From Jiangellaceae bacterium (GTDB taxonomy: Bacteria > Actinomycetota > Actinomycetes > Jiangellales > Jiangellaceae): a DNA stretch of 64,000 nucleotides. Under the pieces are notes generated by a model. The model worked only from the letters and a program-made list of their open reading frames with translations. It was not told where the DNA came from and did no database searches. This document shows positions 8,311 to 45,847 of this stretch, one piece after another. How positions within the stretch are numbered: position 1 is the first letter of the stretch; each line of letters opens with the position of its first letter. The position numbers were made by a program, and so were the translations under genes. Where the stretch lies: contig DASUYL010000069.1 of NCBI GenBank assembly GCA_036377395.1, positions 5,757 to 69,756 of the forward strand, written 5' to 3'.

Positions 8311-8379
8311 CCACGCCATTGGGTACCATGAGGCCCTTCCCAGGCTCGACGAACGCCACGCCGACCGGCAGGTACTGAC

Positions 8380-14536: not shown

Positions 14537-14552
14537 GTAACGGGTCGCCGGC

Positions 14553-14936: not shown

Positions 14937-14970
14937 GACGGTGACCTCCGCAGGGTGATGGTTTCGTGCT

Positions 14971-15219
14971 TCAGATCCCGAGAATCTGCTTCTTCTTCGC
15001 GTCGTACTCTTCGTCGGTGATCAGGCCCTGTTCCTTGAGCCGACCGAGTTGCTCCAGCTCGGCGACGTAGGACGGCTGCGCGGGCTGGGCCGGTGCGGCC
15101 GGCGGTGCGTAGTCCGGTTGCTGCGAGGCGTACTCCGGCTCCGGCGAGGCCATCGCCTGTTGCCGGCGCGAAACCCGCCGGCTCGTCCGGCGGGCTACGC
15201 GCCTGCTGGGTCCGAACAT
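14971..15219 (-). CDS. SHOCT domain protein
   Basis: C-terminal LGRLKEQGLITDEEYDAKKKQILG motif. The start lies 2 nt after the stop of the upstream gene. Confidence 0.7.
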   Translation of the reverse strand: MFGPSRRVARRTSRRVSRRQQAMASPEPEYASQQPDYAPPAAPAQPAQPSYVAELEQLGRLKEQGLITDEEYDAKKKQILGI

Positions 15220-15221
15220 GG

Positions 15222-15758
15222 TCAGCTCTCCTTCGTCTCGGTGGTGTCAGCCGCGCCTTCTGCCTCGGCTGCCGAGATGAAGCCGACGGCAACGAGATCG
15301 AGCGGGCTGATGAATCCGTCGCTGATCCGGAACCCGCCGGCCCGGGCGATCGCGTCGCGCAGCGGGATCGCCCAGCGGTGCTCCAGCAGGACGAGGGCAG
15401 CCGCAGTGTCGTTCGGCAGCTCGTCGAGGACGTCCCAAGCATCCTGCTCGGAGAAGACGTCCACGCCGTCCGCGGCGGCCTCCGCGCCCGCGACAGCGCC
15501 CGCTTCCATACCTTTCTCACCCTCGGCGCCGAGACCGACGAGGGCACCGACAACGGCGCCGAGCTCCGCTGCCTCGTCGGCCGAGAGGTTGCTGACCTTC
15601 AGCGCGGCGACGTCGCCCTCGGCGTCCTTGTACACCGCGAGGGCATCGATCAGGCGAACCGTGTCGTCTTCCCGGAGCCGGCTGAGCTCGGCCAGGATCT
15701 CGCCTCTGAAATCGGGCTGGCTGAAGCCGAGCACCAACAACTGCACTGGTCCGATCAT
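15222..15758 (-). CDS. DUF1269/DUF6325-like protein (function unknown)
   Basis: MIGPVQLLVLGFSQPDFRGEILAEL...LIDALAVYKDAEGDV architecture. GAGGGGA lies 6 nt before the ATG at 15758. Confidence 0.6.
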   Translation of the reverse strand: MIGPVQLLVLGFSQPDFRGEILAELSRLREDDTVRLIDALAVYKDAEGDVAALKVSNLSADEAAELGAVVGALVGLGAEGEKGMEAGAVAGAEAAADGVDVFSEQDAWDVLDELPNDTAAALVLLEHRWAIPLRDAIARAGGFRISDGFISPLDLVAVGFISAAEAEGAADTTETKES

Positions 15759-15867
15759 CGTGATCCCCTCGTTGCCCAGCGGCACAGGGCTGCTTCGTCA
15801 CATCAGACGCGCCGTGCGCCGGGCACGCCTCACCCGGACGGGGTGAAAAGTCCGGCTCGGGTCCCGG

Positions 15868-18231
15868 TCATTGACGTGCCATCGCGATCCGCAGTCGCTC
15901 GTCCGGCGAGATCAGGTGATCTAGATCCTCGGCGGCCTCGTCGGTGTCGATCTGTACCCATCGAATCCGCCCGCTGAAGGAGCTGCTCTTCGGGCCGTAG
16001 TCGTCGCTGACGGGTGTAGCGGTGTCCGATCCGATGTCGGTCGTTTCGTCGGCCGAGAAGAGCATGGGAACCGTCCCGTCCACCCGCCCCTCGCCGGCCC
16101 GGTTGCCGTCGACGAAGAGGGTGACCGTCCCGCCCTTGCCCAGCCCTCCACCGTCGTAGACGAACTCCGCCCGAACCTGATGCTCGCCGGCCGGAATCGG
16201 CTCGTCGCCGTAGACCTTGAAGCGGCGGAGACCGAACAGGTTGTAACAGAACGCCGGCTTGCCGTCCATGGCGTAGAGGCTGAACCCGCCGAAGCCGCCG
16301 CCCTGGGCGATGATCACCCCGCTGGCACCGGTGTCGGGAACGTCCACCTCGGCGGTGATGGCGAACGACTTGTTCTTGGTGACCACGATGCTGTTCTCGG
16401 ACAGCCGGCCCATCCCGCCGAACAGAACCTGCGAGTTGCCTTTCACCAGCTGGGGGCGGCCGGCCAGTTCGGGGTTGAAGCGCTCGAAGCGGCGGTCGTC
16501 CAGCGGAAGCACGTCGTACTTGACCGCCTCGATCAGGAACAAGCGCTGGAGCTCGTGCAGCTTGTCCGGGCGCTCCCCGGACAGGTCGTGCGCCTGCGTC
16601 CAGTCCTCCGGGCTGTAGAGCTCCCAGACGTCATCGTCGAAGGCCGGCATCTCCGTAGGTGCCCACGGGATGCTGTGCCGGGTCACGGCCGTCCAGCCAT
16701 CGTGGTAGATGCCCCGGTTGCAGAACATCTCGAAGTACTGGGTCGTGTGGCGATCCTCGGCGTCGCCCCGTTCGAAGGAGTACGCCATGCTCACACCGTG
16801 CAAGGGCATCTGCAGGACGCCGTTGACACTGTCGGGTTCGGGCAGCCCGGCTGCCTCGAGGATCGTCGGCGCGATGTCGATAACGTGGTGGAACTGGGAG
16901 CGGATCTCGCCGCGAGCCGGAAAGCCGTTGGGCCAGTGGACGATGGTGCCGTTGCGCGTGCCGCCCCAGTGTGACGCGACCTGTTTGGTCCATTGGTACG
17001 GCGCATCCATGGCGTGGGCCCAGCCGACGGCGTAGTGGTTGTAGGCCGCGGGCGTCCCGAAGTCGTCGATGCGCGACGCCATGAACTCGACCGTCTCGAG
17101 TCCGGCGGCACCGTTGAGGACGACGAGTTCGTTGAAGCAGCCGTTGGGTGTGCCCTCGGCTGAGGCCCCGTTGTCCCCGATCAGGTAGAAGATCAACGTG
17201 TCGTCGCGGATCTCGAGTTCGGTGAGTGCGTCGATCAGCCGTCCGACGTGGTGGTCGGTGTGCTCGAGGAAGCCGGCGTATACCTCCATCTGCCGGGCCA
17301 GGACGGGCTTCAGACCTTCCGGCATGTCGTCCCAGGCCGGAATTTCCGCCGGGCGCGCGGTCAGCTCAGCGTCGGGCGGAATCACACCGAGCTCCTGCTG
17401 CCGGGCGAGGGTCTCCTCGCGGAGCCGGTCCCAGCCCTGGTCGAACCTGCCCTTGTACTTGTCCGCCCACTGCTTCGGAACGTGGTGCGGCGCATGGGTC
17501 GCACCGGGCGCGTAGTAGACGAAGAACGGCTTGTCCGGCGCGAGCGCCCGCTGCTGTCGTACCCAGGCGATCGCCCTGTCGGTCATGTCCTGGGTGAAGT
17601 GATACCCCTCCTCCGGCGTCCGGTCCGGCTCGATCGGCACGGTGTCCTGGTAGATCGCTGGAGCCCACTGGTTGGTCTCGCCCGCGACAAAGCCGTAGAA
17701 GTGCTCGAAGCCGGACCCCGTCGGCCATTGGCGGAACGGTCCGACGGGGCTCGCCTCCCACACCGGAACCTCGTGACATTTGCCGAACTGTGCGGTCGAG
17801 TAGCCGTTGAGTCTGAGGACCTCCGCCAGCGGCGCGGCGGTGTTGGGCCGGATCGAGTTGTACCCCGGCGCAGACGTGGCGATCTCGGTGATGCCGCCCA
17901 TCCCGACGGCGTGGTGGTTCCTCCCCGTCAGCAGGGCCTGGCGCGTGGGCGAGCACAGCGCCGTCGTGTGGAACCGGTTGTACTTCAGACCGTTCGCGGC
18001 CAGCCGGTCCGCGGTGGGCGTCTCACACGGCCCGCCGAACGCGCTGGCGGCACCGAACCCGACGTCGTCGAGCATGATCACCAGGACGTTCGGCGCACCC
18101 GCCGGCGGTCGGAGTGGGTCGATCGGCGGGAACGCGGTCGCGGGATCCTTTGCGTCGTAGGTCACCAGACCACTGGGACGGCGATCCGGAACCGGAAGGA
18201 CGTGGCGACCGAGCGCTTCGCTGTGGGTCAT
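15868..18231 (-). CDS. arylsulfatase (Cys-type sulfatase family), no signal peptide
   Basis: MLDDVGFG metal-binding motif and the CSPTRQALLTGRNHH formylglycine signature. Confidence 0.9.
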   Translation of the reverse strand: MTHSEALGRHVLPVPDRRPSGLVTYDAKDPATAFPPIDPLRPPAGAPNVLVIMLDDVGFGAASAFGGPCETPTADRLAANGLKYNRFHTTALCSPTRQALLTGRNHHAVGMGGITEIATSAPGYNSIRPNTAAPLAEVLRLNGYSTAQFGKCHEVPVWEASPVGPFRQWPTGSGFEHFYGFVAGETNQWAPAIYQDTVPIEPDRTPEEGYHFTQDMTDRAIAWVRQQRALAPDKPFFVYYAPGATHAPHHVPKQWADKYKGRFDQGWDRLREETLARQQELGVIPPDAELTARPAEIPAWDDMPEGLKPVLARQMEVYAGFLEHTDHHVGRLIDALTELEIRDDTLIFYLIGDNGASAEGTPNGCFNELVVLNGAAGLETVEFMASRIDDFGTPAAYNHYAVGWAHAMDAPYQWTKQVASHWGGTRNGTIVHWPNGFPARGEIRSQFHHVIDIAPTILEAAGLPEPDSVNGVLQMPLHGVSMAYSFERGDAEDRHTTQYFEMFCNRGIYHDGWTAVTRHSIPWAPTEMPAFDDDVWELYSPEDWTQAHDLSGERPDKLHELQRLFLIEAVKYDVLPLDDRRFERFNPELAGRPQLVKGNSQVLFGGMGRLSENSIVVTKNKSFAITAEVDVPDTGASGVIIAQGGGFGGFSLYAMDGKPAFCYNLFGLRRFKVYGDEPIPAGEHQVRAEFVYDGGGLGKGGTVTLFVDGNRAGEGRVDGTVPMLFSADETTDIGSDTATPVSDDYGPKSSSFSGRIRWVQIDTDEAAEDLDHLISPDERLRIAMARQ

Positions 18232-18605
18232 GTTTGGTTCCCTTCGTGTTCGAACCGTTCGAGCGCCGCGTCGATGTCGTAGCCGACCGCCAGCGCAAGC
18301 TCAGGTGCCGCCGACACGATCCGTGCGACGCCCACAGTGGGCGCTACGGAGATCAGGACGCCGACGATCTCCTCGACCGTGGCACCGGAGGCGAAAGCGG
18401 CCCCGACGACGGACTGGTACGAGGCCGGCGCGGCGTCGAGAGCCAGCAGCGCTGCGAGCCGCACCAGCGCGTGGATCTTCGGATCCAGTCCCGACGCCTC
18501 GACGTCGTCCGGGCGCATCGCCAGCACCGAGTCGATGAACTTCTCGTCGTTGAGCGCCAGGCACCGCAGCCGGCGGTGGTGCAGAAGGTCATGGTTCGAC
18601 ACCAT
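18228..18605 (-). CDS. carboxymuconolactone decarboxylase (AhpD-like) family protein
   Basis: CMD-like helical sequence (LDPKIHALVRLAALLALD...TVEEIVGVLISVAPTVG). ATGA overlap with the sulfatase start. Confidence 0.75.
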   Translation of the reverse strand: MVSNHDLLHHRRLRCLALNDEKFIDSVLAMRPDDVEASGLDPKIHALVRLAALLALDAAPASYQSVVGAAFASGATVEEIVGVLISVAPTVGVARIVSAAPELALAVGYDIDAALERFEHEGNQT

Positions 18606-18704
18606 CGCCCGACTCCTGTCGCGCTGCAGCCGCCCGGGAACGTCGATTCGGCGGTGGCCTCCATGTCACGCCACGACCTAGCGGCGGCGCATCACCCGGA
18701 CCGG

Positions 18705-21032
18705 ATGAAAGGGGCGGTCCGAACCTTTGCGAGTTGGTACCGTGCCCGGGTGAGCGGCCCGCCTCCACGGCGCGCCACACCTAACCGCGGGGGGGCGCCG
18801 GCACGATCAGCGAACGTGACGTTCGGCGTCATCGAGTCCAAGCTCCATCCGCCGCCGACGCGCGCCGGCACCGTGCCTCGTGCCGCCTTGGTCGACCGGC
18901 TCACCGGCTCGTCCGCGCCTGTCGTCGCCATCGTCGCCCCGCCGGGATACGGGAAGACGACACTGCTCGCCGAGTGGCAGGAGACCGAGTCCAGGGCAGT
19001 CGTGTGGATCTCGCTCGACAGCGGAGACAACGACCCGGTCGTGCTGACGACCCACCTGGCCACCGCCCTCGACCGCATCGAGTCTCTCGGCCCACCGGTG
19101 TTCGCCGCTCTCTCGTCCACGGGCACGTCGGTGATCTCCACGGTGTTGCCCCGGCTGGGTGCGGCCATCGCCGCCATGTCCCGACCGGTCGTCCTGCTCC
19201 TCGACGATCTCCACGTCGTGAATGACCAGGTGAGTCTCGACGTCGTCGCCGAGATCGCCGAACGGCTCCCACCGGGTTCCCAGTTGGCGGTGACCTCCCG
19301 CGTCGTGCCGGATCTTCCCCTGGCCCGGCTGCGGGCCCGTGGCGCTCTGGCCGAGGTCGGCGCCTCCGACCTGGCGTTGGATGCCGTCGCGGCGCGGACA
19401 CTGATGCGCAGCGCGGGAGTCGACCTGCCGGACCCGGCGGTGGCGGAGCTGACCCGACGGACCGAGGGTTGGCCGACCGGGCTGTACCTCGCCGCGCTGT
19501 CCGTCCAGGCCCGCGGGCACAACAAGGTCCAGGCCATCGCGTTTCGTGGCGACGACCGGTTCGTCGCCGACTACGTGCGGTCGGAGATCCTCACCGGGCT
19601 GCCCGACGACCTCGTACGCTTTCTCGTCCTCTCCGCGGTACTCGACCGGATGTGCGGGTCGCTGTGCGACGCCGTTGTCCGCCGCACGGGGTCGGCAGGG
19701 CTTCTACGGTCGATCGAGAGGTCCAACCTTCTTCTCGTTCCGCTCGATCACCACCGCGAGTGGTACCGCTACCACCATCTGCTCCGTGACGTGTTGCTCG
19801 CCGAACTTGACTCGAGGGAGCCCGGCCTGGCGCCGATACTCCACCGCCGGGCGGCGGACTGGTTCGAGGCGAACGGGTTTGCCGAGGAGGCCTTTCACCA
19901 TGCTCACGCGGGCGGAGAGGACGATCGGGCCGCGCAGCTTCTGGAGCAGCTGGCACTGCCGCTGAACCGGACCGGCCGGCTCAAGACGATGCAGGGCTGG
20001 CTTGACCAGCTCGGGGAGGTCGCCATCGGGCGTCATCCGTCGCTGGCGGTGCTGGCCGGATGGAGCGCTGCGTTGTCCGGTGACGTGATCGGCGCCACGT
20101 GGTGGGCGGAGCTCGCCGAACGCAGCCCCGTCGTCGAGGCTTCGGCCGACGGCGGAACGTCGCCCGATTCGAGACTGCACCTCCTCAACGCCATGACCTG
20201 CCGACATGGTGTCGACCGGATGAGAAAGGATGCCGAGATCGCCGTCCGGCTCGAGTCCGAGCGCAGCCCCTGGCATCCGCCGGCGCTCGCCCTACAGGGA
20301 GTGGCCCTCCTGCTCACCGGCGACCTGGACAAGGCCGACGACGTCCTCTCCGACGCGGTCGAGTCGGCCGAGCGTGCCGGCGCAGGGCCGGCGGCATCGA
20401 TCGCCCTTGCGGAGCGCTCCCTGCTGGCCATGGCCCGAAGCGACTGGCACGCGGCGCGCCGTCTCGCCGATCGCGCCCTGGCCACCGTGGAGGCCGGCCA
20501 TCTCCACGACTACATGGTCAGCTCGATCACGTTCGCCACCGTCGCCCGGGTCGCTCTCCATCACGGCGACGTTGCCGCCGCCAAGAGGGAGGTCATCCGG
20601 TCTCAGCGGTTGCGGCCGCTGCTCACGCGTGCCGTTCCCTGGCTCTCCGTCCAGACGATGGCCGAGCTCGCCCGGGTGCAGTTCGCCCTCGCCGATCGAG
20701 CGGGCGCGTGGATGCTGCTGTCCGACGCGCGCGACATCGTCGGCAGGTTGCCCGATCTCGGCGTACTCGGTGAACAGCTCGGCGATGTCCGGCGCCGGCT
20801 CGAGCTCCTCCGCGGTGGTGACCTCCCCGGCCCCACCGCCCTGACCGCTGCCGAACTGCGACTGCTGGCGTACCTGCCGACGCACCTGTCCTTCCGCGAG
20901 ATCGGCGAACGCCTCTTCGTGTCGACCAACACCGTCAAGACGCACGCCATCTCGATCTATCGCAAGCTGGGCGTCTCATCTCGAACCGATGCGGTGGTGA
21001 GAGCCCGCGACATAGGGCTGCTGGAGGCATGA
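18705..21032 (+). CDS. MalT/LAL-type LuxR-family transcriptional regulator (P-loop NTPase + helical repeats + LuxR HTH)
   Basis: Walker A APPGYGKTTLL, a long helical repeat region, and a C-terminal LSFREIGERLFVSTNTVKTHAISIYRKLGV HTH. The start is uncertain (ATG 18705 or GTG 18816). Confidence 0.85.
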   Translation: MKGAVRTFASWYRARVSGPPPRRATPNRGGAPARSANVTFGVIESKLHPPPTRAGTVPRAALVDRLTGSSAPVVAIVAPPGYGKTTLLAEWQETESRAVVWISLDSGDNDPVVLTTHLATALDRIESLGPPVFAALSSTGTSVISTVLPRLGAAIAAMSRPVVLLLDDLHVVNDQVSLDVVAEIAERLPPGSQLAVTSRVVPDLPLARLRARGALAEVGASDLALDAVAARTLMRSAGVDLPDPAVAELTRRTEGWPTGLYLAALSVQARGHNKVQAIAFRGDDRFVADYVRSEILTGLPDDLVRFLVLSAVLDRMCGSLCDAVVRRTGSAGLLRSIERSNLLLVPLDHHREWYRYHHLLRDVLLAELDSREPGLAPILHRRAADWFEANGFAEEAFHHAHAGGEDDRAAQLLEQLALPLNRTGRLKTMQGWLDQLGEVAIGRHPSLAVLAGWSAALSGDVIGATWWAELAERSPVVEASADGGTSPDSRLHLLNAMTCRHGVDRMRKDAEIAVRLESERSPWHPPALALQGVALLLTGDLDKADDVLSDAVESAERAGAGPAASIALAERSLLAMARSDWHAARRLADRALATVEAGHLHDYMVSSITFATVARVALHHGDVAAAKREVIRSQRLRPLLTRAVPWLSVQTMAELARVQFALADRAGAWMLLSDARDIVGRLPDLGVLGEQLGDVRRRLELLRGGDLPGPTALTAAELRLLAYLPTHLSFREIGERLFVSTNTVKTHAISIYRKLGVSSRTDAVVRARDIGLLEA

Positions 21033-28745: not shown

Positions 28746-29435
28746 TCACGGCGCGCCCCCGCGACTCGCTGCCGCCTCCAGGTGGGTGACGAACCACTCA
28801 CCTGCGAGGCGGGCGACCTCATCGAGTGCGCCGGGCTCCTCGAACAGATGCGTCGCTCCCTCGACGATCACCAGGTCTCGAACGCAACGCAACTCACCCA
28901 GGGCCTCCTCGTTGAGCCGCAGGACGACATCGTCCCGGCCGCCGACGATCAGCAGTGTCGGGGCATGCACGTCCGCCAGTGCGGTGCCGGCCAGATCCGG
29001 TCGACCACCACGCGACACGACGGCCGCGACCCGGTCGCTCATCCTCGCCGCTGCCACCAGAGCCGCCGCTGCGCCGGTGCTCGCGCCGAAGTAGCCGAGT
29101 GGCAGGTGCGCAGTCGACGGCTCCTGCACCAGCCACCGCGTCGCCGCGAGCAGCCGATCGGCGAGCAGGCCGATGTCGAACCGGTGGCGTCCCGTGCGGG
29201 CGTCCACCCTCTCCTCGGCGTCGGTGAGCAGGTCGGCCAGCATGGTGGCCAGGCCGCGACCCTGCAGCTCGCCTGCGACGCTGCGGTTGCGCGGGCTGTG
29301 CCGGCTGCTGCCGCTGCCGTGGGCGAACAGCACCATGCCGCGGGCGCGCTCGGTCACGGCCAGATCGCCGTGTATCGCCTGGCCCGCAGCGACCTCGATG
29401 GTGACGGTTCGCTCGGATACAGGGTCTACAGCCAC
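28746..29435 (-). CDS. dienelactone-hydrolase-like alpha/beta hydrolase
   Basis: MVLFAHGSGSSRHSPRN, nucleophile elbow GASTG, and C-terminal ATHLFEEPG. The GTG start at 29435 overlaps the upstream stop (GTGGCTGTAG). Confidence 0.8.
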   Translation of the reverse strand: MAVDPVSERTVTIEVAAGQAIHGDLAVTERARGMVLFAHGSGSSRHSPRNRSVAGELQGRGLATMLADLLTDAEERVDARTGRHRFDIGLLADRLLAATRWLVQEPSTAHLPLGYFGASTGAAAALVAAARMSDRVAAVVSRGGRPDLAGTALADVHAPTLLIVGGRDDVVLRLNEEALGELRCVRDLVIVEGATHLFEEPGALDEVARLAGEWFVTHLEAAASRGGAP

Positions 29436-30904
29436 TCGAGGACCTTCCGGGCGAAGGCATCCTGGACCCAGAAGCTGCTGTGGTCGACGGCGGCGGCGGC
29501 AGGGAACACCAACGGATCGGCGGGTGCGAAGCCGTCGAGTCCGGCCACGCGGTGGACGCCTTCGGTCGGCACGATCAGGTCGTTCTCGGTACTGCCGAAC
29601 ACGACGTCGATGAGCGCGTCGCGCGCCGTCCGGGACAGCGGCGAGCCCTTGGTCGGCTCGAAGTTCGAGGCAACGGCACGGTAGGTGCTGGCCGTAGTGG
29701 TGGGCAGGTTGAGGTACTCGCGGAGATAGCTGCCCTTGGGATCCATGGAGGCCAGCCCGTCGAGTCCTCGGAACGCGCCCACGGCGAGTTGCTTCAGGAC
29801 GGCGAGGACGACGTCGACGGTGTCGGTGACCGGATTGTCCGGCACCAGCTGGACCAGGTTCGTCACCCGGTCGAGCAGCGTGTCCAGGTGCTCGGAGTCT
29901 GCCAGGGCGGTGCCCGCGTTCGGCGTGCCTACCATGATCAGATTGCGCACGTCGACGACTCCGCCGAGACCCAGCTCTTGGCCGTGCTCGGCCAAGACCC
30001 GCCCGACCAGACCACCGCGCGAATGGGCGATCACGTCGACGGTCATGCCGAGACCCTGCGGCAGCTGCTTCGCCAGCCACCGGACGTTCTCCGTCGGGTC
30101 CACCGAGATCGTGAAATGGTCGAAGGCGATCACCCGGCCCTCGTAGCGACGATGCAGCTCGCTGATCAGCGGCTCGGGGATCCGGCGGAAGCCGGTGTGG
30201 GCCTGGCTCATGGTCCCGTGGACGAACATCAGCACCGGCCCGGCGGCCAGGGAGGACCAGTCCGGCAGCTGGCCGCCCGCAGCCTGCCGGTACGTGGCGG
30301 GCTCGAACGGCCGCAGGCCGTTGCGCCGGTGATGCTGTTCCCAGCGCGATGCGAAGTAGTCGCCGACCTTGCCCAGCAGGGGATCCACGAGCGGGAACAC
30401 GAGCACCTTGAGCAGCTTGGAGCCCACCATGCCGAGCAGGCCCCGCTGCCCGTCTCCCGCGGAACCCTCCGCCGGCATCACCGCACGCGGTACGCGGTAG
30501 ACGCGGCTGTCACCACCGCGGGACGCCACCGACTCCGGGTCCTGGGGTACGTCCACCGGCAGGTGCCAGCTCACGGTCCCGTCCTCGGCGGTGTAGATCA
30601 GGAACTGGCCCAGGCCGGTTCCCGGTCCGGGCACCTCCGCCTCGATGTCGTTCTCACCACCCGCCGCCCGGCTGCCGGTGCCGTCGTCGCCGGTCTGCCA
30701 GACGTCGCGGATCTCGATCGTCAGCTGTTCTTCGACGCCGGCCCGTTCGAGGCAGTCGAGGAACTCCGCCGTCGCGTCCTCGGCGGCGCGCATTCCGGAG
30801 CCGCCGGCATGATGGACCTCCGCCGTTCCGGTGAGCCCCGGCGTGCGCAGCGTGACGCTGCCGATCGGGACTGCGACACCTGTGGGGTCGAGCTGCTCAG
30901 CCAC
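29426..30904 (-). CDS. protein with a roughly 215-aa N-terminal region of unknown function and a C-terminal lipase/PGAP1-like alpha/beta-hydrolase domain
   Basis: VLMFVHGTMS oxyanion-type strand and an AHSRGG nucleophile elbow (Ser codon 30020-30022). The GTG at 30904 is preceded by CAGGGGGAC and overlaps the CHAT stop (GTGGCTGA). Confidence 0.75.
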   Translation of the reverse strand: MAEQLDPTGVAVPIGSVTLRTPGLTGTAEVHHAGGSGMRAAEDATAEFLDCLERAGVEEQLTIEIRDVWQTGDDGTGSRAAGGENDIEAEVPGPGTGLGQFLIYTAEDGTVSWHLPVDVPQDPESVASRGGDSRVYRVPRAVMPAEGSAGDGQRGLLGMVGSKLLKVLVFPLVDPLLGKVGDYFASRWEQHHRRNGLRPFEPATYRQAAGGQLPDWSSLAAGPVLMFVHGTMSQAHTGFRRIPEPLISELHRRYEGRVIAFDHFTISVDPTENVRWLAKQLPQGLGMTVDVIAHSRGGLVGRVLAEHGQELGLGGVVDVRNLIMVGTPNAGTALADSEHLDTLLDRVTNLVQLVPDNPVTDTVDVVLAVLKQLAVGAFRGLDGLASMDPKGSYLREYLNLPTTTASTYRAVASNFEPTKGSPLSRTARDALIDVVFGSTENDLIVPTEGVHRVAGLDGFAPADPLVFPAAAAVDHSSFWVQDAFARKVLEWL

Positions 30905-32999
30905 GGTCGTCCCCCTGTCCTGGTATGAGCCGTAACCGCGGATGGCCGAACAGCTGGTACGCCACGAACGTGGCGCTGTCGGCCGTCCCGGCGTCGACGT
31001 TGTCGGCCGTGTATGTCGCGCGGATCCTGCGGAGCGCTTCGGCCACCGGCGGTGCGCTGTCCCCGCCGTAGACGACGGTGTAGAAGTCGTCGGCGACTCG
31101 GCTCGCAACCTCGTCCTCGACGTTCCACAACGCGGCAACGACCCCGGACGCGCCGGCCCTCAGGAAGGCGGCGGCCAGACCCGCGTAGTCGCCGAGGGCC
31201 ACCTGGCCCTGCCCGACCTGGCAGGCGTTAAGGAACAGGAACGTGGGTCGCGGCATCGTGACGGCGTCGACGTGCTGCGGCTTGAGGTACTGGGGGCCGA
31301 AGCCTCCGTTGGCCTTCGGTGCCAGCAATACGAGGCCCTGGTCGACGCCCTGCGGGTCGAACCGCCCGTGCAGGGCGACATGCAGGACGTCCGCAGCGGG
31401 CCTCCCGCCCAGACAGTCGAGGACGGCACGGAAGACGGGCTCGATGACGGCCGTCCGCGGATAACGCTTCGCGAGGTCGTCGGCCTCGGCCTCGGCGAAG
31501 GGCAGCTGCGGCCAGCCCGTGACCCCGACGTACTTCGCGGTCAGCACCGCACGGTCGACGACCTCGACGCTGCGCCGGGCGACGGGCTTCGGCCGGGAGT
31601 CGGTGAGGGGCCAGCGGCCGAGCGCCACGTGCGCGCCCAGGAACGGCGACCTGCCGCCGAACGGCGTGACCAGCGGCGGGTTGAACGACGCGAGCTCCCA
31701 CGGCACGTACGGCTCCTCGGTGAACAGCAGCACGGACGCGGCCTCGGTGAGATCGGGCTGCTCCGCAACGTGGCGGATGGCGGCCTGCATGGCCGGTGGC
31801 ACCGCGTCGCCGATCCTGCGGCCGGTTCCGACCAGGAAGGTGTACAGCGCATAGCGGTCGCTGGACGTCGCGACCTCACGTCCGATGTCGGTCGTGAAGC
31901 TCCGCGGGTCACCGAGGTTCTCGGCCCGCTCCGAGTCCGGCACTGGGACGCCAGACGCAGCGGGATAGGCGGCCCACACGTACCCGCCCGGCGCCGTCGA
32001 GTCGGCCCGGAACACGGCGAGCACGAGGTCGGGGGCATCCTCGGCGACCAGCGATGTCAGGTCCAGCAGCTCGCGCTCACGGGTCTGCGGTTTCGGCGCG
32101 CTCGCCATGTCCTCCGCAGTCCGGACCGCGACGACGACGCGCCACGCGATGGCGACGACCACGCCGTCGCGCAGGTAGTGCACGCCGATGCGCCGTTCGT
32201 CCCCGAGATCGTCGCCGTCGAGCGCGGTGAACCGCACGGTTGCCGACGGGTAGGGATCGTCGCGCGTGACCGGCAGCGAGAGCCGGGAGTCGCCGTCGAG
32301 GTGGAGAGACTGCGGGTCGTAGGTCAGCATCACCTCGACGCGCAGGTCGCCCTCGGGGAGGTCGAAGGCCCCGGTACCGACGAGCGTCCGGTCCCGGCGC
32401 GGTGCGATACCGACCGTGACGTCGAAGGGATGATCGATGACGACGACGGACGGCGCGTCGACCCGCGGGTATGCCTCACGCCTGGTGGATACCGGTGCCG
32501 ACCCCGGCGGTTCGTCCACAGCCACCTCGACTCCGAAGTCCGGCAGCTCGATGCCCTCAGGCGATTCAAGGCCCCTGGTCGGAGGTGCGGCTGAGTCGGC
32601 ATCCGAGTCCGCGCTGTCGACCGCGGCTGCCACCGGCCAGAAGCCGGCAAAGACCCGCGAGCTGGCCCGCCGCATCGCCTCCATCGCACCCACCGGGAAC
32701 GGGCCGCACGCCTCGATGTCGGCCGCGAGCGTGAACGGGTCGCCGAGGTCGATCTGGTCCCAGTTCGCCGACGTCAGCCGCTGCCAGGACCCGGCCCTGG
32801 CCAGGGCCACGGACAGCCAGAACCGGACTCGGCCCGACGGTTCCCCGTCGACGAGGCGCTGCACGTCGCCGACGTGCGGCCGCACGTCGTGACGGGCGAG
32901 TGTTCGCGCGGCGTCGAAGCGCCGACTCTCGGTGGTGTCCCGAAGGGCGGTCCAGATCGCCTCGAGCTCGCGGTCGTCGTTCAGATCGGCAGCGCTCAT
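30897..32999 (-). CDS. CHAT-domain (caspase-like) protease with a helical-repeat N-terminus and a beta-rich middle domain
   Basis: C-terminal region with LLFTEEPYVPWELA, VLHVALHG (His codon 31368-31370) and FLFLNACQVGQG (Cys codon 31221-31223), the CHAT His/Cys dyad context. Confidence 0.85.
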   Translation of the reverse strand: MSAADLNDDRELEAIWTALRDTTESRRFDAARTLARHDVRPHVGDVQRLVDGEPSGRVRFWLSVALARAGSWQRLTSANWDQIDLGDPFTLAADIEACGPFPVGAMEAMRRASSRVFAGFWPVAAAVDSADSDADSAAPPTRGLESPEGIELPDFGVEVAVDEPPGSAPVSTRREAYPRVDAPSVVVIDHPFDVTVGIAPRRDRTLVGTGAFDLPEGDLRVEVMLTYDPQSLHLDGDSRLSLPVTRDDPYPSATVRFTALDGDDLGDERRIGVHYLRDGVVVAIAWRVVVAVRTAEDMASAPKPQTRERELLDLTSLVAEDAPDLVLAVFRADSTAPGGYVWAAYPAASGVPVPDSERAENLGDPRSFTTDIGREVATSSDRYALYTFLVGTGRRIGDAVPPAMQAAIRHVAEQPDLTEAASVLLFTEEPYVPWELASFNPPLVTPFGGRSPFLGAHVALGRWPLTDSRPKPVARRSVEVVDRAVLTAKYVGVTGWPQLPFAEAEADDLAKRYPRTAVIEPVFRAVLDCLGGRPAADVLHVALHGRFDPQGVDQGLVLLAPKANGGFGPQYLKPQHVDAVTMPRPTFLFLNACQVGQGQVALGDYAGLAAAFLRAGASGVVAALWNVEDEVASRVADDFYTVVYGGDSAPPVAEALRRIRATYTADNVDAGTADSATFVAYQLFGHPRLRLIPGQGDDRG

Positions 33000-37330: not shown

Positions 37331-40300
37331 TCATGCCAGCCTGGCCGCGAGCGATGGAGACGCCATCGTCCGCAGCCGGGCCAGTCCAAGCGCCACGCTG
37401 TCGGCCGCTGCGGCAGTGCTGTCGAACCCCTCGGTGACGAACGCATCGACCGCACCACGCACGTACGGATCCTGGCTCAGGTAATAGGCGAGCTCGCCGG
37501 CGTAGAGATCGCGCTCATCGTCGCCGGCGGCGGGCAGGATCGCTTCCAGGGCGGCGGTTGCCTGGTCAGCGGACTGACCGGGCAAGTACGCCGCCAGTCG
37601 TTCCTCCGCGCTGAGGGCGACGGGTTCTCGCGGCAGTGATGGAGCCGCAGCCGGAAGCGCGCGGGCGAGCAGGGCGTCGGCATCCACGATGCCGGCCCCG
37701 TATTGTGAGCCGTCCCAGCCGGTCGGCCGGCGGGCCGTCCTCCGTACGAGGTCGATGAAAACGGCCTGCAGGGCCGCCTTGCCGTACCTCGAGATCAGGT
37801 TCTCACGGCCGTGATGGGCGAGCCACAGCGCCGCCACACCGGCCGTGAGCGCCACGGCGAACGAGGTGCCCGCACTTCGACCCACCGAGAACACCGGTCC
37901 GTCCGCACCTTTGCGCGCCCGGGCCGTGTGGACGCTCTCGCCGGGTGCGCTGATGTCGACCAGCTGACCATGTGACGACCCGCTCCACGGTTCGTCGCGG
38001 ACGTTCGTCGCCGCGACGGCCACGACCTCGGCGTAGTTCGCCGGTGAGACGACGAACCCCACCTGGTTCCCGGCTGCCGCCAGCACGATGATCCCGTCGT
38101 CGATGGCCGCATTGATCGCGGCTCGGAGCGCCGGTGAGAACCCGACGCCGCCGAGGCTCATCGTGATCACGTGGCATCCGCTCCGCCGCGCATACTCCAC
38201 GGCCCGGGCGACGTCCCCGTCGAAGACGAGGACGACGCTGCGGATCGCACGCAACGGGACCAGACTCGAGCCCGGCGCGGACCCGGTGACGGTTCCCGGA
38301 TCGCGGCTCATCACCACCGACGCCGTGGCGGTCCCGTGCCCGGGGTTGTCCATCCACCACCATCGCCTGGTGAGTGGATCGGTGGCGTCGTTGTCGTTGT
38401 CGAGCAGGTCTCGCTGCCGGGCAGTGTCGATACCCGGCTGCAGTTCCGGCTGCGCCGTCACACCGGTGTCGGGTTGGGCCACCGAGATTCCGGCACCGCG
38501 GGACGGTTCCTGCGTCCATGCGCCGGGCACACGCATGCTCTCCAATGCCCACCGGGGATTCTCGGTCCCCGGCAGATGCGCGGACTGCGCGCCTGCACCA
38601 TCGATGGTCGGGTCTTGAGCGTCGAGGTCGTATACCCCGACCGGCGGGTACATGGCTCCGGACGGCAGGTCGGGCTGCACGTCGAAGCCGGTACGCCTCA
38701 TCAACTCCCGCGACATCTCGAAGGCCAGGGACCTGCGCTGGTCGTCGGTGCCGCGCCGGAGGCTTCCCGTCACTGCGTAGTAGCCCTGCAGGTCCGGAGG
38801 AGGCGGCGTGTCGGGGTCGATCTGGAACAGCGGCTCGACGGTCCAGCGCCGCCCGAACGTTCGTTGCACCGCTCGCCGGACCGTGGCGCGATCCGCGTCG
38901 CCGGCAGCGACGAGGAAGCGCAGCAGCGTGGGGACTTCCATGGCGGGTGCGCGTACCAGTGTGGCTCCGGGCTGGACGCCCCATCGTCCCGATGGGAGCG
39001 GACCCAGGCGCTCGCGCCGGTTCGCGACCAGCGTTCCCTCGTGATAGCCCATCAGCCGCAGCCGGAGGGCCCCGGCACCGGGCTTCCTGATCGTCGTCGG
39101 CCGCTCGTCGCGGACGTTGACCGAGGCCACGGGCCGGTCGTCGAGGTAGACGTCGATCCGGTCCATTCCGCCCGTGGTGATGGTGAGCTCCAGCGTTCCT
39201 CCGCGCACCACCGTCGCCGGGTCGATGTCGAGCCGGCGCGTCGGCTGCGTTCCGAGCATGGCTGCGGCATGTGCGATCAGGTCGTCGTTCGCGCCGTCGA
39301 CGTCGCGGCGGGTCATGCGGTGGATTTCGTCCGGCACGACTCCCAGGTCCTCGACCGGTGTACCGGCGGCGTCGGCGACCCGCAGCGTCCGCCGGATCGA
39401 GACCCTCATGTCGACGCCCGCCGGCAGCGCGCGATACGGCGACCGCACGGATCCACGTTCGTTCATCAACTGGCTCAGCAGGCTGTGAGTCCACACATTC
39501 GCGCCACCCGCGCCGGTGTTGGAGTCCACCCCGAGCACCTTGCCGATGCCGTGATCCTGGAAGCCGCCGGCGAAGATGTCCGTCGCGGAGTAGCAGCGAG
39601 CATCGGTGATCAGGACGGCCGGCCCGAAGTAGCGTTGGCCGACGGCGTTCGCCCGGTCGCTGGGTGTGATCGAGAAGGCGTTGGAATGGGTGGCGCCGGT
39701 CTCGACGGCTTGCTCCATCGAGGGTAGCCATGGCCCGAGGTTGATGCCGCCCTGTCCACGATCATGCTGTCGGCAGATCTCCGTGTTTAGCGCCGAGTTG
39801 ATGAACTGCGTCGGCTCCGGCGTGATGACGGCGGGCGTCAAGGTCTGCAGGATGAGTTCGGCGGCCCAGATGTGCCCGCCCCCGTTCCCCCGTACGTCGA
39901 TGATCAGGCCACGGCGCGGCATCGCCTCGATGAGCCGGACGAACTCCGCCACGAACGCGTCGGGATCGCTCACGTTGAACGTGAAGATCCGCACGTATCC
40001 GAACTCGGTCTGGTCGATGGTGACCGGGCGGGCACGGAACACCGAAGGGAGACTCGTCTCGATCTCCCCCTGGGCGGGGCGGGGCTCGTCGGCGCTTGGA
40101 TCGAGTTCGCTCGCCGCGACCGCCGGTGCGAACAGCAGCTTCCGGGCTCGGTAGGCCTCGTCCTGGTCGAGATCCAATCCGCTGGCCGTTCTGGACTCGT
40201 CGATGCGTGCATCCTCCGCCGTCGCCGGGGGCAGGTTCGGCGCCACCAGCCACGGCTGGCGGAACTCTCCCGGCGTGCCGTTCTTCTGGAACCCGATGAC

Positions 40301-40990
40301 CACCCAGTCCTCGTCCGGGTACCGGTGGATGCGCAAGGGACGGATGGTGAGCGACTCGACCCCACGTGCGTGACGGGCGGCGTCGTTGCTACCCGCGTAT
40401 CGGGCGGCGTTCAGCTCGATGGCCCGCTCGATCGGCATCCCGTTCCAATGAGTGATCTCGACGCCGTGTGCGAAGTCACCGGTGGGTGCACCCTCCATGA
40501 CCTTGGTGACCAGGTACTTCGGGCGGTCGTCCTCGTAGAACTCCTCGACCAGGAACGGAAGAAATGCCAGTTGGCCGCGGTACGGGTCCGGGAGGAGATA
40601 GTTGGTGTGCAGGTCGCGCAGCGCGTGGAAGATCTCCGACAGCTCACCGTGGAAGTCGTCAGCAGGCGAAAGAGGGCCGCTGGTCGACCTCGTCAGGCGT
40701 GCCTGCAACAGCCGTAAGCGCTGCACCGGGTTCACCGCGTGCATCGCGACCTTGTGCGGGAGGTGGACGTAGTTCTGCTCGATCAGCACGAGGGCCTGCT
40801 CCACGATTCGCCGGCGGTCGGGCATCGTCAGCCGGACTTCCTGCTGCCGGAACGTCGCCAGATCGACGGCCTGCGCCAGCAGAGACTGCACACCCTCGGG
40901 TGCGGCCTCGGCCAGGTCGGCTCCGATGCCAGAGGACTGGCCGGCGCCGGAGTCGTTCCGCCCGTCGTAGGACTCGTCGTCGCTGACCAT
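37331..40990 (-). CDS. large cytoplasmic dual-protease fusion: N-terminal S41 peptidase + beta-rich linker + C-terminal S8 subtilase
   Basis: S41: GLIIDVRGNGGGHIW and LITDARCYSATDIFAGGFQD. S8: AQPDTGV (Asp), NPGHGTATAS (His), AAAGNQ (Asn), SAGTSFAVALTAG (Ser). Acidic N-terminus with no signal peptide. GGAGGG precedes the ATG at 40990. Confidence 0.85.
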   Translation of the reverse strand: MVSDDESYDGRNDSGAGQSSGIGADLAEAAPEGVQSLLAQAVDLATFRQQEVRLTMPDRRRIVEQALVLIEQNYVHLPHKVAMHAVNPVQRLRLLQARLTRSTSGPLSPADDFHGELSEIFHALRDLHTNYLLPDPYRGQLAFLPFLVEEFYEDDRPKYLVTKVMEGAPTGDFAHGVEITHWNGMPIERAIELNAARYAGSNDAARHARGVESLTIRPLRIHRYPDEDWVVIGFQKNGTPGEFRQPWLVAPNLPPATAEDARIDESRTASGLDLDQDEAYRARKLLFAPAVAASELDPSADEPRPAQGEIETSLPSVFRARPVTIDQTEFGYVRIFTFNVSDPDAFVAEFVRLIEAMPRRGLIIDVRGNGGGHIWAAELILQTLTPAVITPEPTQFINSALNTEICRQHDRGQGGINLGPWLPSMEQAVETGATHSNAFSITPSDRANAVGQRYFGPAVLITDARCYSATDIFAGGFQDHGIGKVLGVDSNTGAGGANVWTHSLLSQLMNERGSVRSPYRALPAGVDMRVSIRRTLRVADAAGTPVEDLGVVPDEIHRMTRRDVDGANDDLIAHAAAMLGTQPTRRLDIDPATVVRGGTLELTITTGGMDRIDVYLDDRPVASVNVRDERPTTIRKPGAGALRLRLMGYHEGTLVANRRERLGPLPSGRWGVQPGATLVRAPAMEVPTLLRFLVAAGDADRATVRRAVQRTFGRRWTVEPLFQIDPDTPPPPDLQGYYAVTGSLRRGTDDQRRSLAFEMSRELMRRTGFDVQPDLPSGAMYPPVGVYDLDAQDPTIDGAGAQSAHLPGTENPRWALESMRVPGAWTQEPSRGAGISVAQPDTGVTAQPELQPGIDTARQRDLLDNDNDATDPLTRRWWWMDNPGHGTATASVVMSRDPGTVTGSAPGSSLVPLRAIRSVVLVFDGDVARAVEYARRSGCHVITMSLGGVGFSPALRAAINAAIDDGIIVLAAAGNQVGFVVSPANYAEVVAVAATNVRDEPWSGSSHGQLVDISAPGESVHTARARKGADGPVFSVGRSAGTSFAVALTAGVAALWLAHHGRENLISRYGKAALQAVFIDLVRRTARRPTGWDGSQYGAGIVDADALLARALPAAAPSLPREPVALSAEERLAAYLPGQSADQATAALEAILPAAGDDERDLYAGELAYYLSQDPYVRGAVDAFVTEGFDSTAAAADSVALGLARLRTMASPSLAARLA

Positions 40991-41116
40991 GACACCCTCC
41001 ACTGTCCACGTCCTCGACCGCCGACACCGGCTGACTCTCGCCTACAGGGACGAAGAGGCGATACTGCCGCCATTGATACGCCTAGGCCATGTCGCTGCCG
41101 ACGGGAGGGCGCACGG

Positions 41117-42235
41117 CTACCCCTCGATGTCCAGCACCCGCAGCGGGTGGAAGCGCCCACCACCCACGGCCAGCCGGGTGCCGCGGCGAAGGTCGATGTC
41201 GCCGTTCGCATCGAAGCCGAACCGACCCTGCAGACCGGGGAAGTCGCGCGTACCGAAGGCCGCCTCGACGATCGCGGCCCGATCCGGCACGCCGACACGC
41301 TCGACCGCCTCGAGGACGACGCCCATCGCGTCGTACGCGGAAGCGGCGTACGACTCGGGCTCCTTCCCGAAGCGCTTGACGTAACGGCGGAAGAACACTC
41401 GCCCCGGACCCTGCAGGAGCGCCGGTGGAACGCTGCCGAACGTGACGTACGTGCCTTCGGCGTGCTCACCTGCATCCGCGATGAAGGCCTCCTCGAAGAG
41501 GGCGTCCGAGCCCATCATCATCATCTCCGGAGCGGCCGTGCGGATGTCTCGCCACAGCGGACCTGCACCGTTCTGGATGATCCCGCCGTAGAAGACGAGG
41601 CCGGCACCACTGGCGGCGACCCGCTCGGCCAGCTCTGCGTACTCCTGCCGCTTCGGCGCGATTCCGATCGGCTCCCCCACGACTTCGACGCCGAGCTCGC
41701 GACAGCGGTCGGCGAAGGGCAGCGCGACACCGCGGCCGAACGGCTCGGTGTCGTGCAGCACGACGGCCGCGTCGGCACCGAGCTCCTTCGCCCAGTCCGC
41801 AGCGAATGCACCTTGCAGGTCGTCCGGCAACGCGGTGCGCAGATAGGTGCGCCTGCCCGTCGGGTAGTACTTGTCGGGCTCGCCCGGGTCGAATGGGCGG
41901 GTGAGACCCGGATAGGTGTTGCACGGCGAGATCTGGAGCAGGCCCGCCCGGTTGGTGATCGGGATGGAATGGGGCGCGGCGTCGGCGTCGAGTGTGGCGA
42001 CGTACGCGAGGACGTCCGGGTCGGCGACGGCGTGGCGGGCGTTGGCCCGCTCACGCTCGGCGTCCCACGAGCCGGTCGCCTCGCTGCCGCCGTCGAGGTC
42101 CTCATACCCGATCGGCACGCCGAGCAGGCGGTTGCCGGAGTCCTCCATGCGTAGCCGCATGGCGTTGACGATCGAGTCGCTCTGGCCGATCGACGAGCCG
42201 CTGCGGGTGAGGCTGGACACCAGCTTCACCCGCAT
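41117..42235 (-). CDS. type 1 periplasmic-binding-protein fold (LivK/AmiC-like) ligand-binding protein lacking a signal peptide
   Basis: LivK-like length and sequence (ITNRAGLLQISPCNTYPGLT..., FGFDANGD). The N-terminus MRVKLVSSLTRSGSS is not a signal peptide or lipobox. Confidence 0.75.
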   Translation of the reverse strand: MRVKLVSSLTRSGSSIGQSDSIVNAMRLRMEDSGNRLLGVPIGYEDLDGGSEATGSWDAERERANARHAVADPDVLAYVATLDADAAPHSIPITNRAGLLQISPCNTYPGLTRPFDPGEPDKYYPTGRRTYLRTALPDDLQGAFAADWAKELGADAAVVLHDTEPFGRGVALPFADRCRELGVEVVGEPIGIAPKRQEYAELAERVAASGAGLVFYGGIIQNGAGPLWRDIRTAAPEMMMMGSDALFEEAFIADAGEHAEGTYVTFGSVPPALLQGPGRVFFRRYVKRFGKEPESYAASAYDAMGVVLEAVERVGVPDRAAIVEAAFGTRDFPGLQGRFGFDANGDIDLRRGTRLAVGGGRFHPLRVLDIEG

Positions 42236-44737: not shown

Positions 44738-45847
44738 CTACGCATCCTGCAAGGTCGAGGATCCGCTTTCTTCACTCTGCGCTGCGCGGGATCGCATGAT
44801 CGCGTCGCGGTAGACCTGTTCGTAGCCACGGGCCATCGACTCGATCGAGAAGCGATCGACGACCACCTGCCTGCACGTGTCCGGGTCGATCTCGTCAGTA
44901 CGTTCGATGGCGGCGGGCAACTCGTCCGCGTCGTCGCAGATGAAGCCGTTCACGCCGTCCTCGACGATCTCCGGGACGGCTCCGCGGCGGAGCGCCACAA
45001 CGGGGGTTCCGGACGCGAGGGCCTCGATCATGACCATACCAAACGGTTCGTCCCACTGGATCGGCATGACCAGGGCACGAGCCCGCGCAAGGTAGTCGTG
45101 CTTGCGTTCCTTCGGTGGCTCCTCCAGCCACTCGACGTCGTCATCGAGCAGCGGTTCCACGACCCGCTCGAAGTACTCCTTCTCATCCGGCTCGCGGCAC
45201 TTCGTCAGCGCCACGAGCCTCCGCCCGGCATCGCGTGCCGCGCGCACAGCAAGCTCGGGCGCCTTGTCCGCACAGCACCGCCCGAGGAACAGGACGAAAT
45301 CGTCCTTGTCCCGCCGGAAGTCGTGGTCGGACACGCGCACGCCGTTGTAGACGGTGCCCGCCCACGGCAGGTCGGGCGCGCCGGCTCGCTGTGAGTCCGA
45401 GATCGCGACGAAGGTGAGGTTCTCGCCGAGATGACTGAAGTAGCCGCTGACATCGCCGTAGTAGTCGCCGAGCTCACCATCGACCGGACCGTGCGCGGTC
45501 AAGATCGTCGGAATCGCCATGCCCGCAGCGACCAGCGGACCGGCAGCGGTGTGGTCGTGGATGACGTCGACGTCGAGGTCCGCGAGGACACGTGACGCGG
45601 CTGCGGAGTGTCGTACCTCGGTGAGGACGTCCCCGACCCGATCGCTCTGCGGCTCTTCGGTCGCGGCGAAGAACCGCGTCGCGTCCGTGTTGTCCTCACC
45701 CGCGCCGATGAGCGTGACATCGTGTCCCAGGTCGACGAGTCCGTCCACGAGTCCTGCGCAGACCGACTCGATGCCGCCGTAGCCAGTCGGCGGCACCGGG
45801 AACCAGGGCGGTGCGACCACCGCGACCCGTAAGCTCGACTTTTTCAT
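44738..45847 (-). CDS. glycosyltransferase family 4 protein
   Basis: VAPPWFPVPPTGYGGIE N-terminus and a C-terminal EPFGMVMIEALASGTPVV motif. Confidence 0.85.
   Translation of the reverse strand: MKKSSLRVAVVAPPWFPVPPTGYGGIESVCAGLVDGLVDLGHDVTLIGAGEDNTDATRFFAATEEPQSDRVGDVLTEVRHSAAASRVLADLDVDVIHDHTAAGPLVAAGMAIPTILTAHGPVDGELGDYYGDVSGYFSHLGENLTFVAISDSQRAGAPDLPWAGTVYNGVRVSDHDFRRDKDDFVLFLGRCCADKAPELAVRAARDAGRRLVALTKCREPDEKEYFERVVEPLLDDDVEWLEEPPKERKHDYLARARALVMPIQWDEPFGMVMIEALASGTPVVALRRGAVPEIVEDGVNGFICDDADELPAAIERTDEIDPDTCRQVVVDRFSIESMARGYEQVYRDAIMRSRAAQSEESGSSTLQDA

Follow-up and report, generated by a model that had tools for sequence, protein, structure and literature searches.

What would a bacterium do with two serine proteases of unrelated clans joined in one polypeptide that bears no signal for export? 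The question is raised by a gene on the minus strand of contig DASUYL010000069.1 from a Jiangellaceae bacterium (assembly GCA_036377395.1), within a stretch of 64,000 nucleotides (contig positions 5,757 to 69,756) that is referred to here as the window. The product of this gene carries a family S41 peptidase followed by a family S8 peptidase, or subtilase, and a preliminary description made from the sequence alone had called this two-clan fusion unusual. The S41-then-S8 order is indeed rare, but the protein is not a one-off, and its S41 module is found joined to many other hydrolases. Our favoured, though tentative, reading is that of a self-contained intracellular double zymogen, a gated degradative effector whose two proteases would be released stepwise.

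One reading frame and two protease cores

The two peptidases are encoded in a single uninterrupted open reading frame (ORF). The longest frame runs from 37331 to 41002 on the minus strand and opens at a GTG; 37331-40990 is the likely gene because a GGAGGG resembling a ribosome-binding site precedes the ATG at 40990. The ORF list, the translation and the homologues agree on one real polypeptide of 1219 residues, as had been claimed. A large protein collection holds 20 further full-length proteins with both domains at 51-85% identity, drawn from soil metagenomes and one Actinomycetota metagenome-assembled genome. The chance that two adjacent genes were merged here by a sequencing or assembly error is negligible. 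Both modules do occur elsewhere as separate genes, but the 20 independent homologues, which come from different samples, share the architecture in one unbroken frame, the GC content at third codon positions (GC3) is uniform and of coding type along the entire ORF, and the junction region is conserved. The GC3 of the ORF, 0.84, is on par with that of the neighbouring genes in a window of about 70% GC. Scans for a promoter and a terminator around the gene found none.

The S41 domain was confirmed by a Pfam hidden Markov model match to Peptidase_S41 (PF03572) over residues 330-497 (E 1e-17, 64.7 bits against a cut-off of 24), and the two strings first taken as its signatures stand in the translation at residues 363-372 (IIDVRGNGGG) and 466-476 (CYSATDIFAGG). 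Ser468 aligns with Ser452 of Prc, a column that Ile fills in the entry for the S452I mutant, while Ala494, inside the invariant TGAGGANVW, occupies the column of Prc Lys477. Because Ala494 replaces the catalytic Lys, the module is not a Ser/Lys enzyme, and the S41A type (Tsp/Prc, CtpA/B), which relies on a Ser/Lys dyad, is ruled out. CPAF and tricorn use a His/Ser/Glu catalytic triad. Whichever architecture was examined, fused, S41-only or other, H128, S468, E547 and D548 do not vary; RDLHTNY, which contains His128, is conserved more strongly than any other short motif of the protein, and in the structural model His128 stands two residues ahead of the first PDZ-like strand. The best match of the S41 model in the PDB is CPAF (E 6e-22, about 600 aligned columns, TM 0.67 on the target), with C-terminal processing proteases and Prc clearly trailing it. 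The invariant His128 and Glu547, together with the CPAF-like fold, point to a predicted enzyme of the Ser-His-Glu type. His128 remains a candidate base because the sequence alignment to CPAF failed at that position and because His114 is likewise invariant across all architectures examined, two points that weigh against its assignment. With Ser468 kept and His128 and Glu547 invariant, the S41 half does not look like a degenerate domain.

Comparison with the known S41 proteases sets this half apart from each of them. It has the N-domain, PDZ-like domain, inter-domain segment and S41 core of CPAF (PDB 3dor, 3dpn) in the same order, but shares only about 15% identity with it; CPAF is secreted and has no second protease fused to it, and the present protein has an extra immunoglobulin-like (Ig-like) domain. 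A CPAF orthologue is ruled out, since the NCBIfam CPAF model NF033424 gives 49.7 bits against an equivalog cut-off of 250. Profile and fold matches also include CtpB, D1 protease, Prc and tricorn. Prc/Tsp, CtpA, CtpB and the tricorn core share the fold and the position of the nucleophile; the present protein differs from the first three in having Ala494 for Lys and no signal peptide, and from tricorn in having no β-propellers, as judged from its length and from the Pfam search. A tricorn protease is ruled out on that ground: no β-propeller Pfam domains were found, and the stretch ahead of the PDZ-like domain is only about 125 residues long and mainly helical.

The S8 half is equally well defined. 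Peptidase_S8 (PF00082) matches residues 832-1077 (E 2e-28, 99.8 bits against a cut-off of 21.8), and the four strings that had been quoted for the subtilase set are in the translation at residues 840-843 (PDTG), 884-891 (GHGTATAS), 972-976 (AAGNQ) and 1041-1047 (GTSFAVA). Neither the fused clade nor the stand-alone relatives show any change at D841, H885, N975 and S1043. The core superposes on subtilisins with a TM of 0.85-0.87 (Foldseek), and profile matches in the PDB are to thermitase and subtilisins. The best-scoring named model for this half is that of the mycosins, an actinobacterial family (NCBIfam TIGR03921), and MycP1 is among the fold matches; the score of 118.8 bits falls below the cut-off of 278.75, and there is no signal peptide, no hydrophobic C-terminus and no C-terminal membrane anchor, so the protein is not a mycosin. 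Conservation of the two catalytic cores is equal, 0.79 and 0.78, which gives no sign that either half is a passenger in decay. Across the homologues both catalytic sets stay the same, and the architecture is conserved as one piece. By these residue patterns, both halves look catalytically intact.

Domain order and the zymogen-like S8 half

The two halves were modelled separately, as residues 1-665 and 660-1219. The S41-half model has a predicted local distance difference test score (pLDDT) of 82.7 and a predicted TM score (pTM) of 0.85, and the S8-half model a pLDDT of 80.8 and a pTM of 0.86. A β-rich segment and a propeptide-like segment had been proposed to separate the proteases, with a helical tail behind the second; the models place a β-sandwich at residues 586-661, a propeptide-fold domain at about 688-773 and a helical bundle at about 1128-1218. 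The propeptide-fold domain and the S8 core align together with unautoprocessed pro-subtilisin E (3whi) over 437 columns, with a TM of 0.81 normalised on the target (Foldseek). Because this alignment spans domain and core, the propeptide-like segment is best described as a propeptide-fold domain in the zymogen position. A Pfam search of the protein detected no propeptide family by sequence for residues 688-773; in the model, the S8 half is shown to be zymogen-like in fold. The junction that follows begins in a conserved motif, QPDLPSGAM, in which Q772, P773, D774 and L775 are invariant, and continues into a variable, disordered linker, where pLDDT drops under 50 at about 778-803; the motif scores 0.81 in conservation, against 0.36 for the linker. 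Residues 774-805 are therefore put forward from the model as a candidate junction at which autoprocessing would occur.

A second element of possible regulatory importance lies in the S41 half. CPAF is a zymogen, activated when an internal helix that lies between its PDZ and protease domains is cut out (PMC4734761). A conserved helix pair, residues 270-297, stands where CPAF has this inhibitory helix, a likeness that is one of position only. In the model the inter-domain segment has pLDDT below 50 at residues 258-268 and helices at 274-296, and conservation, 0.59 over the whole segment, rises to 0.75 in the helix pair. The domain ahead of it is on record as PDZ_4 (PF17816) for the present protein and several homologues. 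The Ig-like domain is the last domain of the S41 module, as stand-alone S41 proteins of about 670 residues stop there. The C-terminal extension has no Pfam match and no assigned family; it carries a conserved LYAGELAY motif, with E1166 invariant and Y1169 nearly so, and it is also present in stand-alone S8 proteins of about 571 residues. The coordinates of all these features are collected in the table.

The S8 half shares with pro-subtilisin E and other S8A enzymes the core, the alignment of propeptide fold and core, and the full Asp/His/Asn/Ser set. In the present protein, however, the propeptide is internal, behind an S41 module of 660 residues, there is no signal peptide, and a helical bundle is added. 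The intracellular subtilisins (ISPs) of Bacillus and its relatives are likewise leaderless and need to be kept inactive in the cell, and two entries, 7y6m and 7xr8, are among the best PDB sequence matches. ISPs have a short N-terminal peptide and no folded propeptide domain, are about 320 residues long and are not fused to another protease. Regulation of ISPs by a pro-segment is described in PMC6220982.

Table. Coordinates of the fused protease gene, its domains and its nearest neighbours in the window.
Feature	Position	Strand	Remarks
Whole gene, fused S41 + S8 peptidase	37331..40990	minus	1219 aa + stop; ORF list, translation, full-length homologues at 51-85% identity
RBS-like GGAGGG	40995..41000	minus	4 nt before the ATG at 40990; read from sequence
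N-tail, residues 1-45	40856..40990	minus	Acidic/polar, variable, no signal peptide; pLDDT <50 at 1-20; conservation 0.39
Helical N-domain, residues 46-129	40604..40855	minus	Helices 56-123 in model; ends in invariant RDLHTNY
Candidate general base His128	codon 40607-40609	minus	Within RDLHTNY, motif conservation 0.92
PDZ-like β-rich domain, residues 130-252	40235..40603	minus	Strands 130-251 in model; overall fold matches CPAF
Inter-domain segment, residues 253-317	40040..40234	minus	Disordered loop, helix pair 270-297, disordered stretch
S41 catalytic domain, residues 318-560	39311..40039	minus	PF03572; Ser468 codon 39587-39589, Ala494, invariant Glu547/Asp548
Helix + Ig-like β-sandwich, residues 561-662	39005..39310	minus	Strands 586-661; weak BiPBP_C match
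Propeptide-like β-α-β-β-α-β domain, residues 688-773	38672..38929	minus	From model; pLDDT 90-97 over most
Junction, residues 774-805	38576..38671	minus	End of conserved QPDLPSGAM (771-780) + variable disordered linker
S8 core, residues 806-1110	37661..38575	minus	PF00082; Asp841, His885, Asn975, Ser1043 (Ser codon 37862-37864)
C-terminal extension, residues 1111-1219	37334..37660	minus	Bundle of 5-6 helices ~1128-1218, pLDDT ~70-90
MBL-fold hydrolase, 239 aa	36577-37296	minus	TTG start at 37296, 34 nt after the protease stop
Peripla_BP_6 ligand-binding protein	41117-42235	minus	No signal peptide; Pfam match from residue 9; 126 nt upstream of the protease gene

Relatives, fusion partners and neighbours

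Families S8 and S41, the latter including its CPAF-like form without Lys, are both known; for their union in the S41-then-S8 order, a literature search found no paper. Databases label such proteins only 'S8 family serine peptidase' or 'hypothetical protein'. They make up about 21 clusters at 90% identity that form one clade on a tree of the S41 half, whose sole other member is a probable fragment, and an exhaustive search of 1.84 billion representatives at 50% identity returned a single full-length one. This is thus not a common, already characterised family. Each protease module exists singly in many Actinomycetota. Stand-alone proteins of about 670 residues, which correspond to residues 1-662 at about 55% identity, abound in Nonomuraea, Streptomyces, Kribbella, Lentzea, Geodermatophilus and others; further phyla give scattered matches. 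Stand-alone S8 proteins of about 571 residues, which correspond to residues ~680-1219 and include both the propeptide-fold domain and the tail, are common at 47-65% identity.

The S41 module also recurs with other partners: an N-terminal amidohydrolase, which is the commonest (11 of 25 further long representatives and four of eight tested earlier), a C-terminal α/β-hydrolase, Trypsin_2 with Endonuclease_NS, a metallophosphoesterase, and an S8 domain placed in front. Proteins of this last, S8-then-S41 kind occur in Phenylobacterium and on the Mesorhizobium plasmid pOM4, and they draw on different S8 lineages. Judged by their sequences, these alphaproteobacterial fusions are separate in origin from the one described here. 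Because both orders and different S8 lineages are found, S8 and this S41 module were joined independently at least three times.

Several of these proteins and their surroundings deserve a description of their own. In the S8-then-S41 fusion of Phenylobacterium (P0238 / P0381; 5756-9391 in locus L092), and in a related M4+S8 protein, P0382, the column of the S8 nucleophile holds Thr (GTT) and the Asp, His and Asn are kept; from this alignment column they could be Thr-nucleophile subtilases or inactive. P0323, a metagenomic representative of 1298 residues, joins Trypsin_2, Endonuclease_NS and a CPAF-like S41 in one chain. On pOM4 of Mesorhizobium onobrychidis (7246-19431 in locus L095), near Fic and thermonuclease genes, a row of giant hydrolases on one strand comprises the S8-S41 fusion (1309 residues), a protein of unknown kind (559 residues), a phospholipase-D-like protein with DrmC-like PADLOC matches (826 residues) and an M20/M25/M40 protein (1303 residues). 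On plasmid 2 of Variovorax sp. RA8 (7019-11792 in locus L100), genes for S41, a cytochrome P460 family protein and an amidohydrolase form a row on one strand with antitoxin genes flanking it.

The S8 module has its own set of associations. It also occurs behind a Vps62-like domain and, in Proteobacteria, ahead of trypsin or M4 domains. The proteobacterial proteins closest to it are encoded by the first gene of operons made of S8+trypsin, trypsin and large-ATPase genes, which are found on rhizobial and Ruegeria plasmids and one Bradyrhizobium chromosome and adjoin a dCTP deaminase, an integrase, a patatin with a nucleotidyltransferase, or an Endonuclease_NS gene. The operon of the Rhizobium phaseoli plasmid (8074-17071 in locus L096), which has counterparts in Ruegeria (L098), Sinorhizobium (L099) and Bradyrhizobium (L094), encodes an S8+trypsin protein of about 930 residues, a trypsin-like protein and an ATPase of about 1100 residues. 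In Rhizobium the ATPase is labelled 'AAA' and in Ruegeria 'hypothetical'; the Bradyrhizobium protein has a weak AAA_16 match, Sinorhizobium lacks the ATPase, and the Bradyrhizobium version of the operon adds the Endonuclease_NS gene. The trypsin part matches the PADLOC model PDLC03010, and the operon looks like an undescribed conflict system.

Adjacency of S41 and S8 genes in Lentzea and in one Streptomyces was rejected as a functional link, in Lentzea because the S8 protein is a secreted kexin-like enzyme with a signal peptide and the 'middle gene' is a spurious ORF, and in Streptomyces because the S8 protein is only a distant relative. A phage origin was rejected as well, phage genomes having given only two weak S8 matches. 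In locus L001, two adjacent ORF fragments (18281-19172, plus strand) match different parts of the S8 module (E 1e-47 and 1e-18); they are probably a broken second S8 copy. The intact fused gene is about 7 kb away, and toxin-antitoxin genes are plentiful in the region.

The immediate neighbours in the window had been flagged as possible partners. A gene for a metallo-β-lactamase-fold (MBL-fold) hydrolase does lie downstream and a leaderless binding-protein gene upstream, but neither is conserved in any related locus. No homologue of the MBL gene was found in 97 related loci, which include five other fused loci and five with stand-alone S8, and no conserved partner gene was found, the neighbours being entirely different in all five other fused loci. 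The metal motif of the MBL protein is HGDTDH, against a canonical HxHxDH. Around S41-only genes (including a clustering of 80 GTDB loci) and S8-only genes, only within-genus synteny was found. Two of the fused loci sit among toxin-antitoxin or TIR genes.

Elsewhere in the window, at a distance of about 4.3 kb from the fused gene, lies the gene of a CHAT (caspase-like) protein (30897-32999, minus strand); directly behind it on the same strand comes that of a DUF7379 protein (ORF 29426-31138) that has an α/β-hydrolase nucleophile elbow, VIAHSRGG, and whose true start is probably just past the CHAT stop. The pair resembles the caspase and α/β-hydrolase death-effector modules that PMC12642450 describes as widespread in Actinobacteria, and it has no PADLOC match. 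A relationship between this DUF7379 protein and the α/β-hydrolase domain fused to the S41 module was rejected, since BLAST found only the nucleophile-elbow motif in common. A large LuxR-family regulator with AAA_16, MalT-type TPR and GerE domains (18114-21032, plus strand) and a GT4 glycosyltransferase with a weak 'GT4-conflict' Pfam match (44738-45847, minus strand) have no obvious link to the protease. A tRNA scan of the window found none.

Proposed stepwise release and its alternatives

If the protein is a double zymogen, it would be made in a latent form. The S8 core would cut its own propeptide junction, as classical subtilases do, splitting the chain into the S41 module with the propeptide (about 85 kDa) and the S8 core with the tail (about 46 kDa). 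The propeptide, still joined to the S41 module, would stay bound as an inhibitor until the S41 module removed it, perhaps by way of its PDZ domain. Alternatively, the S41 module would first need to be unlocked, like CPAF. By either route active proteases would be freed only in two steps. Such a device may act in cell death, in turnover during development or in conflict with invaders; constitutive housekeeping is less likely. An effector-like role is proposed because the fusion partners of both modules are degradative enzymes, including a non-specific nuclease, and because the ATPase-linked operons of the S8 relatives fit the logic of proteolysis-gated death effectors. Latent effectors gated by proteolysis are an established logic of prokaryotic defence (PMC12642450), and PMC12642450 and PMC12799240 describe modules in which trypsin-like, caspase-like and S8 proteases unlock latent MBL nucleases, α/β-hydrolases and pore formers. 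The modules of the present protein likewise recur with nuclease, α/β-hydrolase and trypsin partners and in large-ATPase operons. They differ in that S41 is not among the protease classes named in the available portions of the two papers, and in that the present protein has no detectable sensor domain or conserved partner gene.

Several observations weigh against a gated effector. PADLOC-DB v2.0.0, searched with the whole protein (E up to 1) and with each half (E up to 10), gave no match, and neither a sensor domain nor an immunity partner is evident for the S41-S8 protein. The many amidohydrolase partners also suit peptide catabolism. A stand-alone S41 gene keeps the same chromosomal context in about 15 Kribbella genomes, which looks vertically inherited and housekeeping-like, and the neighbours in the window are mostly metabolic. 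Leaderlessness alone, moreover, is no proof of a cytoplasmic site.

Some of these observations feed the main rival, in which the protein serves housekeeping degradation in the cytosol: the two proteases would act in sequence on the same substrates, in the manner of tricorn and its partner peptidases, and the fusion would channel the products. The S41 fold, which falls in the CPAF/tricorn-like branch without Lys, agrees with this, as do the amidohydrolase as commonest partner, the row of S41, P460-family and amidohydrolase genes, the Kribbella synteny and the metabolic surroundings. Some amidohydrolases are dipeptidases, and some α/β-hydrolases are aminopeptidases. A constitutive enzyme, however, would not need a propeptide-fold domain or a CPAF-like inter-domain segment, and the fusions to Endonuclease_NS with trypsin and to metallophosphoesterase do not suit peptide catabolism. 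The narrow, patchy distribution, with its one full-length representative at 50% identity, and the presence of S8-module relatives in ATPase-linked plasmid operons also argue against housekeeping, which we regard as rather unlikely. A two-gene defence module, in which the S41-S8 protein would activate the downstream MBL protein as a latent nuclease, is more doubtful by far. The two genes share a strand and are close together, and PMC12642450 and PMC12799240 describe a clade of MBL nucleases that are associated with proteases and come paired with S8 subtilisin-like enzymes. The related loci, however, hold no MBL homologue, and Pfam Lactamase_B covers the protein end to end with about 13 residues to spare, which leaves little room for gating linkers of the kind described in PMC12642450. 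The gene also lies downstream, while defence nucleases are 'typically upstream' (PMC12799240), and PADLOC gives only a 43-residue motif match (E 3e-4).

The effector and housekeeping readings both place the protein inside the cell. The acidic N-terminus cited earlier, MVSDDESYDGRNDSGAG, is present in the translation, and the view that it holds no signal peptide has held up. In the present protein and the 20 homologues, whose N-termini are variable and polar, there is neither a hydrophobic leader, cryptic or otherwise, nor a membrane helix, nor a twin-arginine signal with a hydrophobic region, and windows of 19 residues look membrane-helix-like only in the buried helices of the S8 core. This absence of export signals from the sequences supports a putative intracellular location. 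Export by a non-classical route (type VII, partner-dependent or by lysis), with the propeptide as a folding chaperone as in secreted subtilases, is improbable. Most members of families S41 and S8 act outside the cytoplasm, secreted subtilases typically have such a propeptide fold, mycosin is the best NCBIfam match of the S8 half, with MycP1 among the fold matches, and the helical C-terminal tail could hold a secretion signal. Yet the mycosin score is far under its cut-off, a C-terminal anchor is missing from the protein and its 20 homologues as are the leaders, and the annotated neighbours in six loci include no secretion-system genes. The motif conserved in the tail, LYAGELAY(Y/H)LSQD, does not match YxxxD/E, and leaderless intracellular subtilases are known (PDB 7y6m, 7xr8; PMC6220982).

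If stepwise release is correct, the fusions described above may be part of something larger. It is conceivable, though on present evidence unlikely, that the CPAF-like S41 module serves as the shared licensing protease in a large and so far undescribed group of protease-effectors, built as single chains or tight operons in soil bacteria, that kill or dismantle the cell in infection or development. The S41 module would then unlock whatever latent domain is attached to it, be it a pro-subtilase, a trypsin with a nuclease, an α/β-hydrolase, an amidohydrolase or a phosphoesterase. S41 would thereby be added to the protease classes (trypsin-like, caspase-like and S8) by which prokaryotic death effectors are known to be gated, and the present ORF would be a protease cascade in one chain.

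Two apparently intact serine proteases, of unrelated clans and each putatively locked as a zymogen, in a single leaderless chain would offer a compact model of stepwise intracellular activation. The recurrence of S41-module fusions with proteases, a nuclease, lipase-like hydrolases and amidohydrolases, in both orders and in different phyla, is a broader and more valuable lead than the single gene. If these fusions are gated effectors, the principle of proteolysis-licensed cell death would extend to a new protease family; should they instead be catabolic assemblies, they would provide a bacterial counterpart of the tricorn degradation chain.

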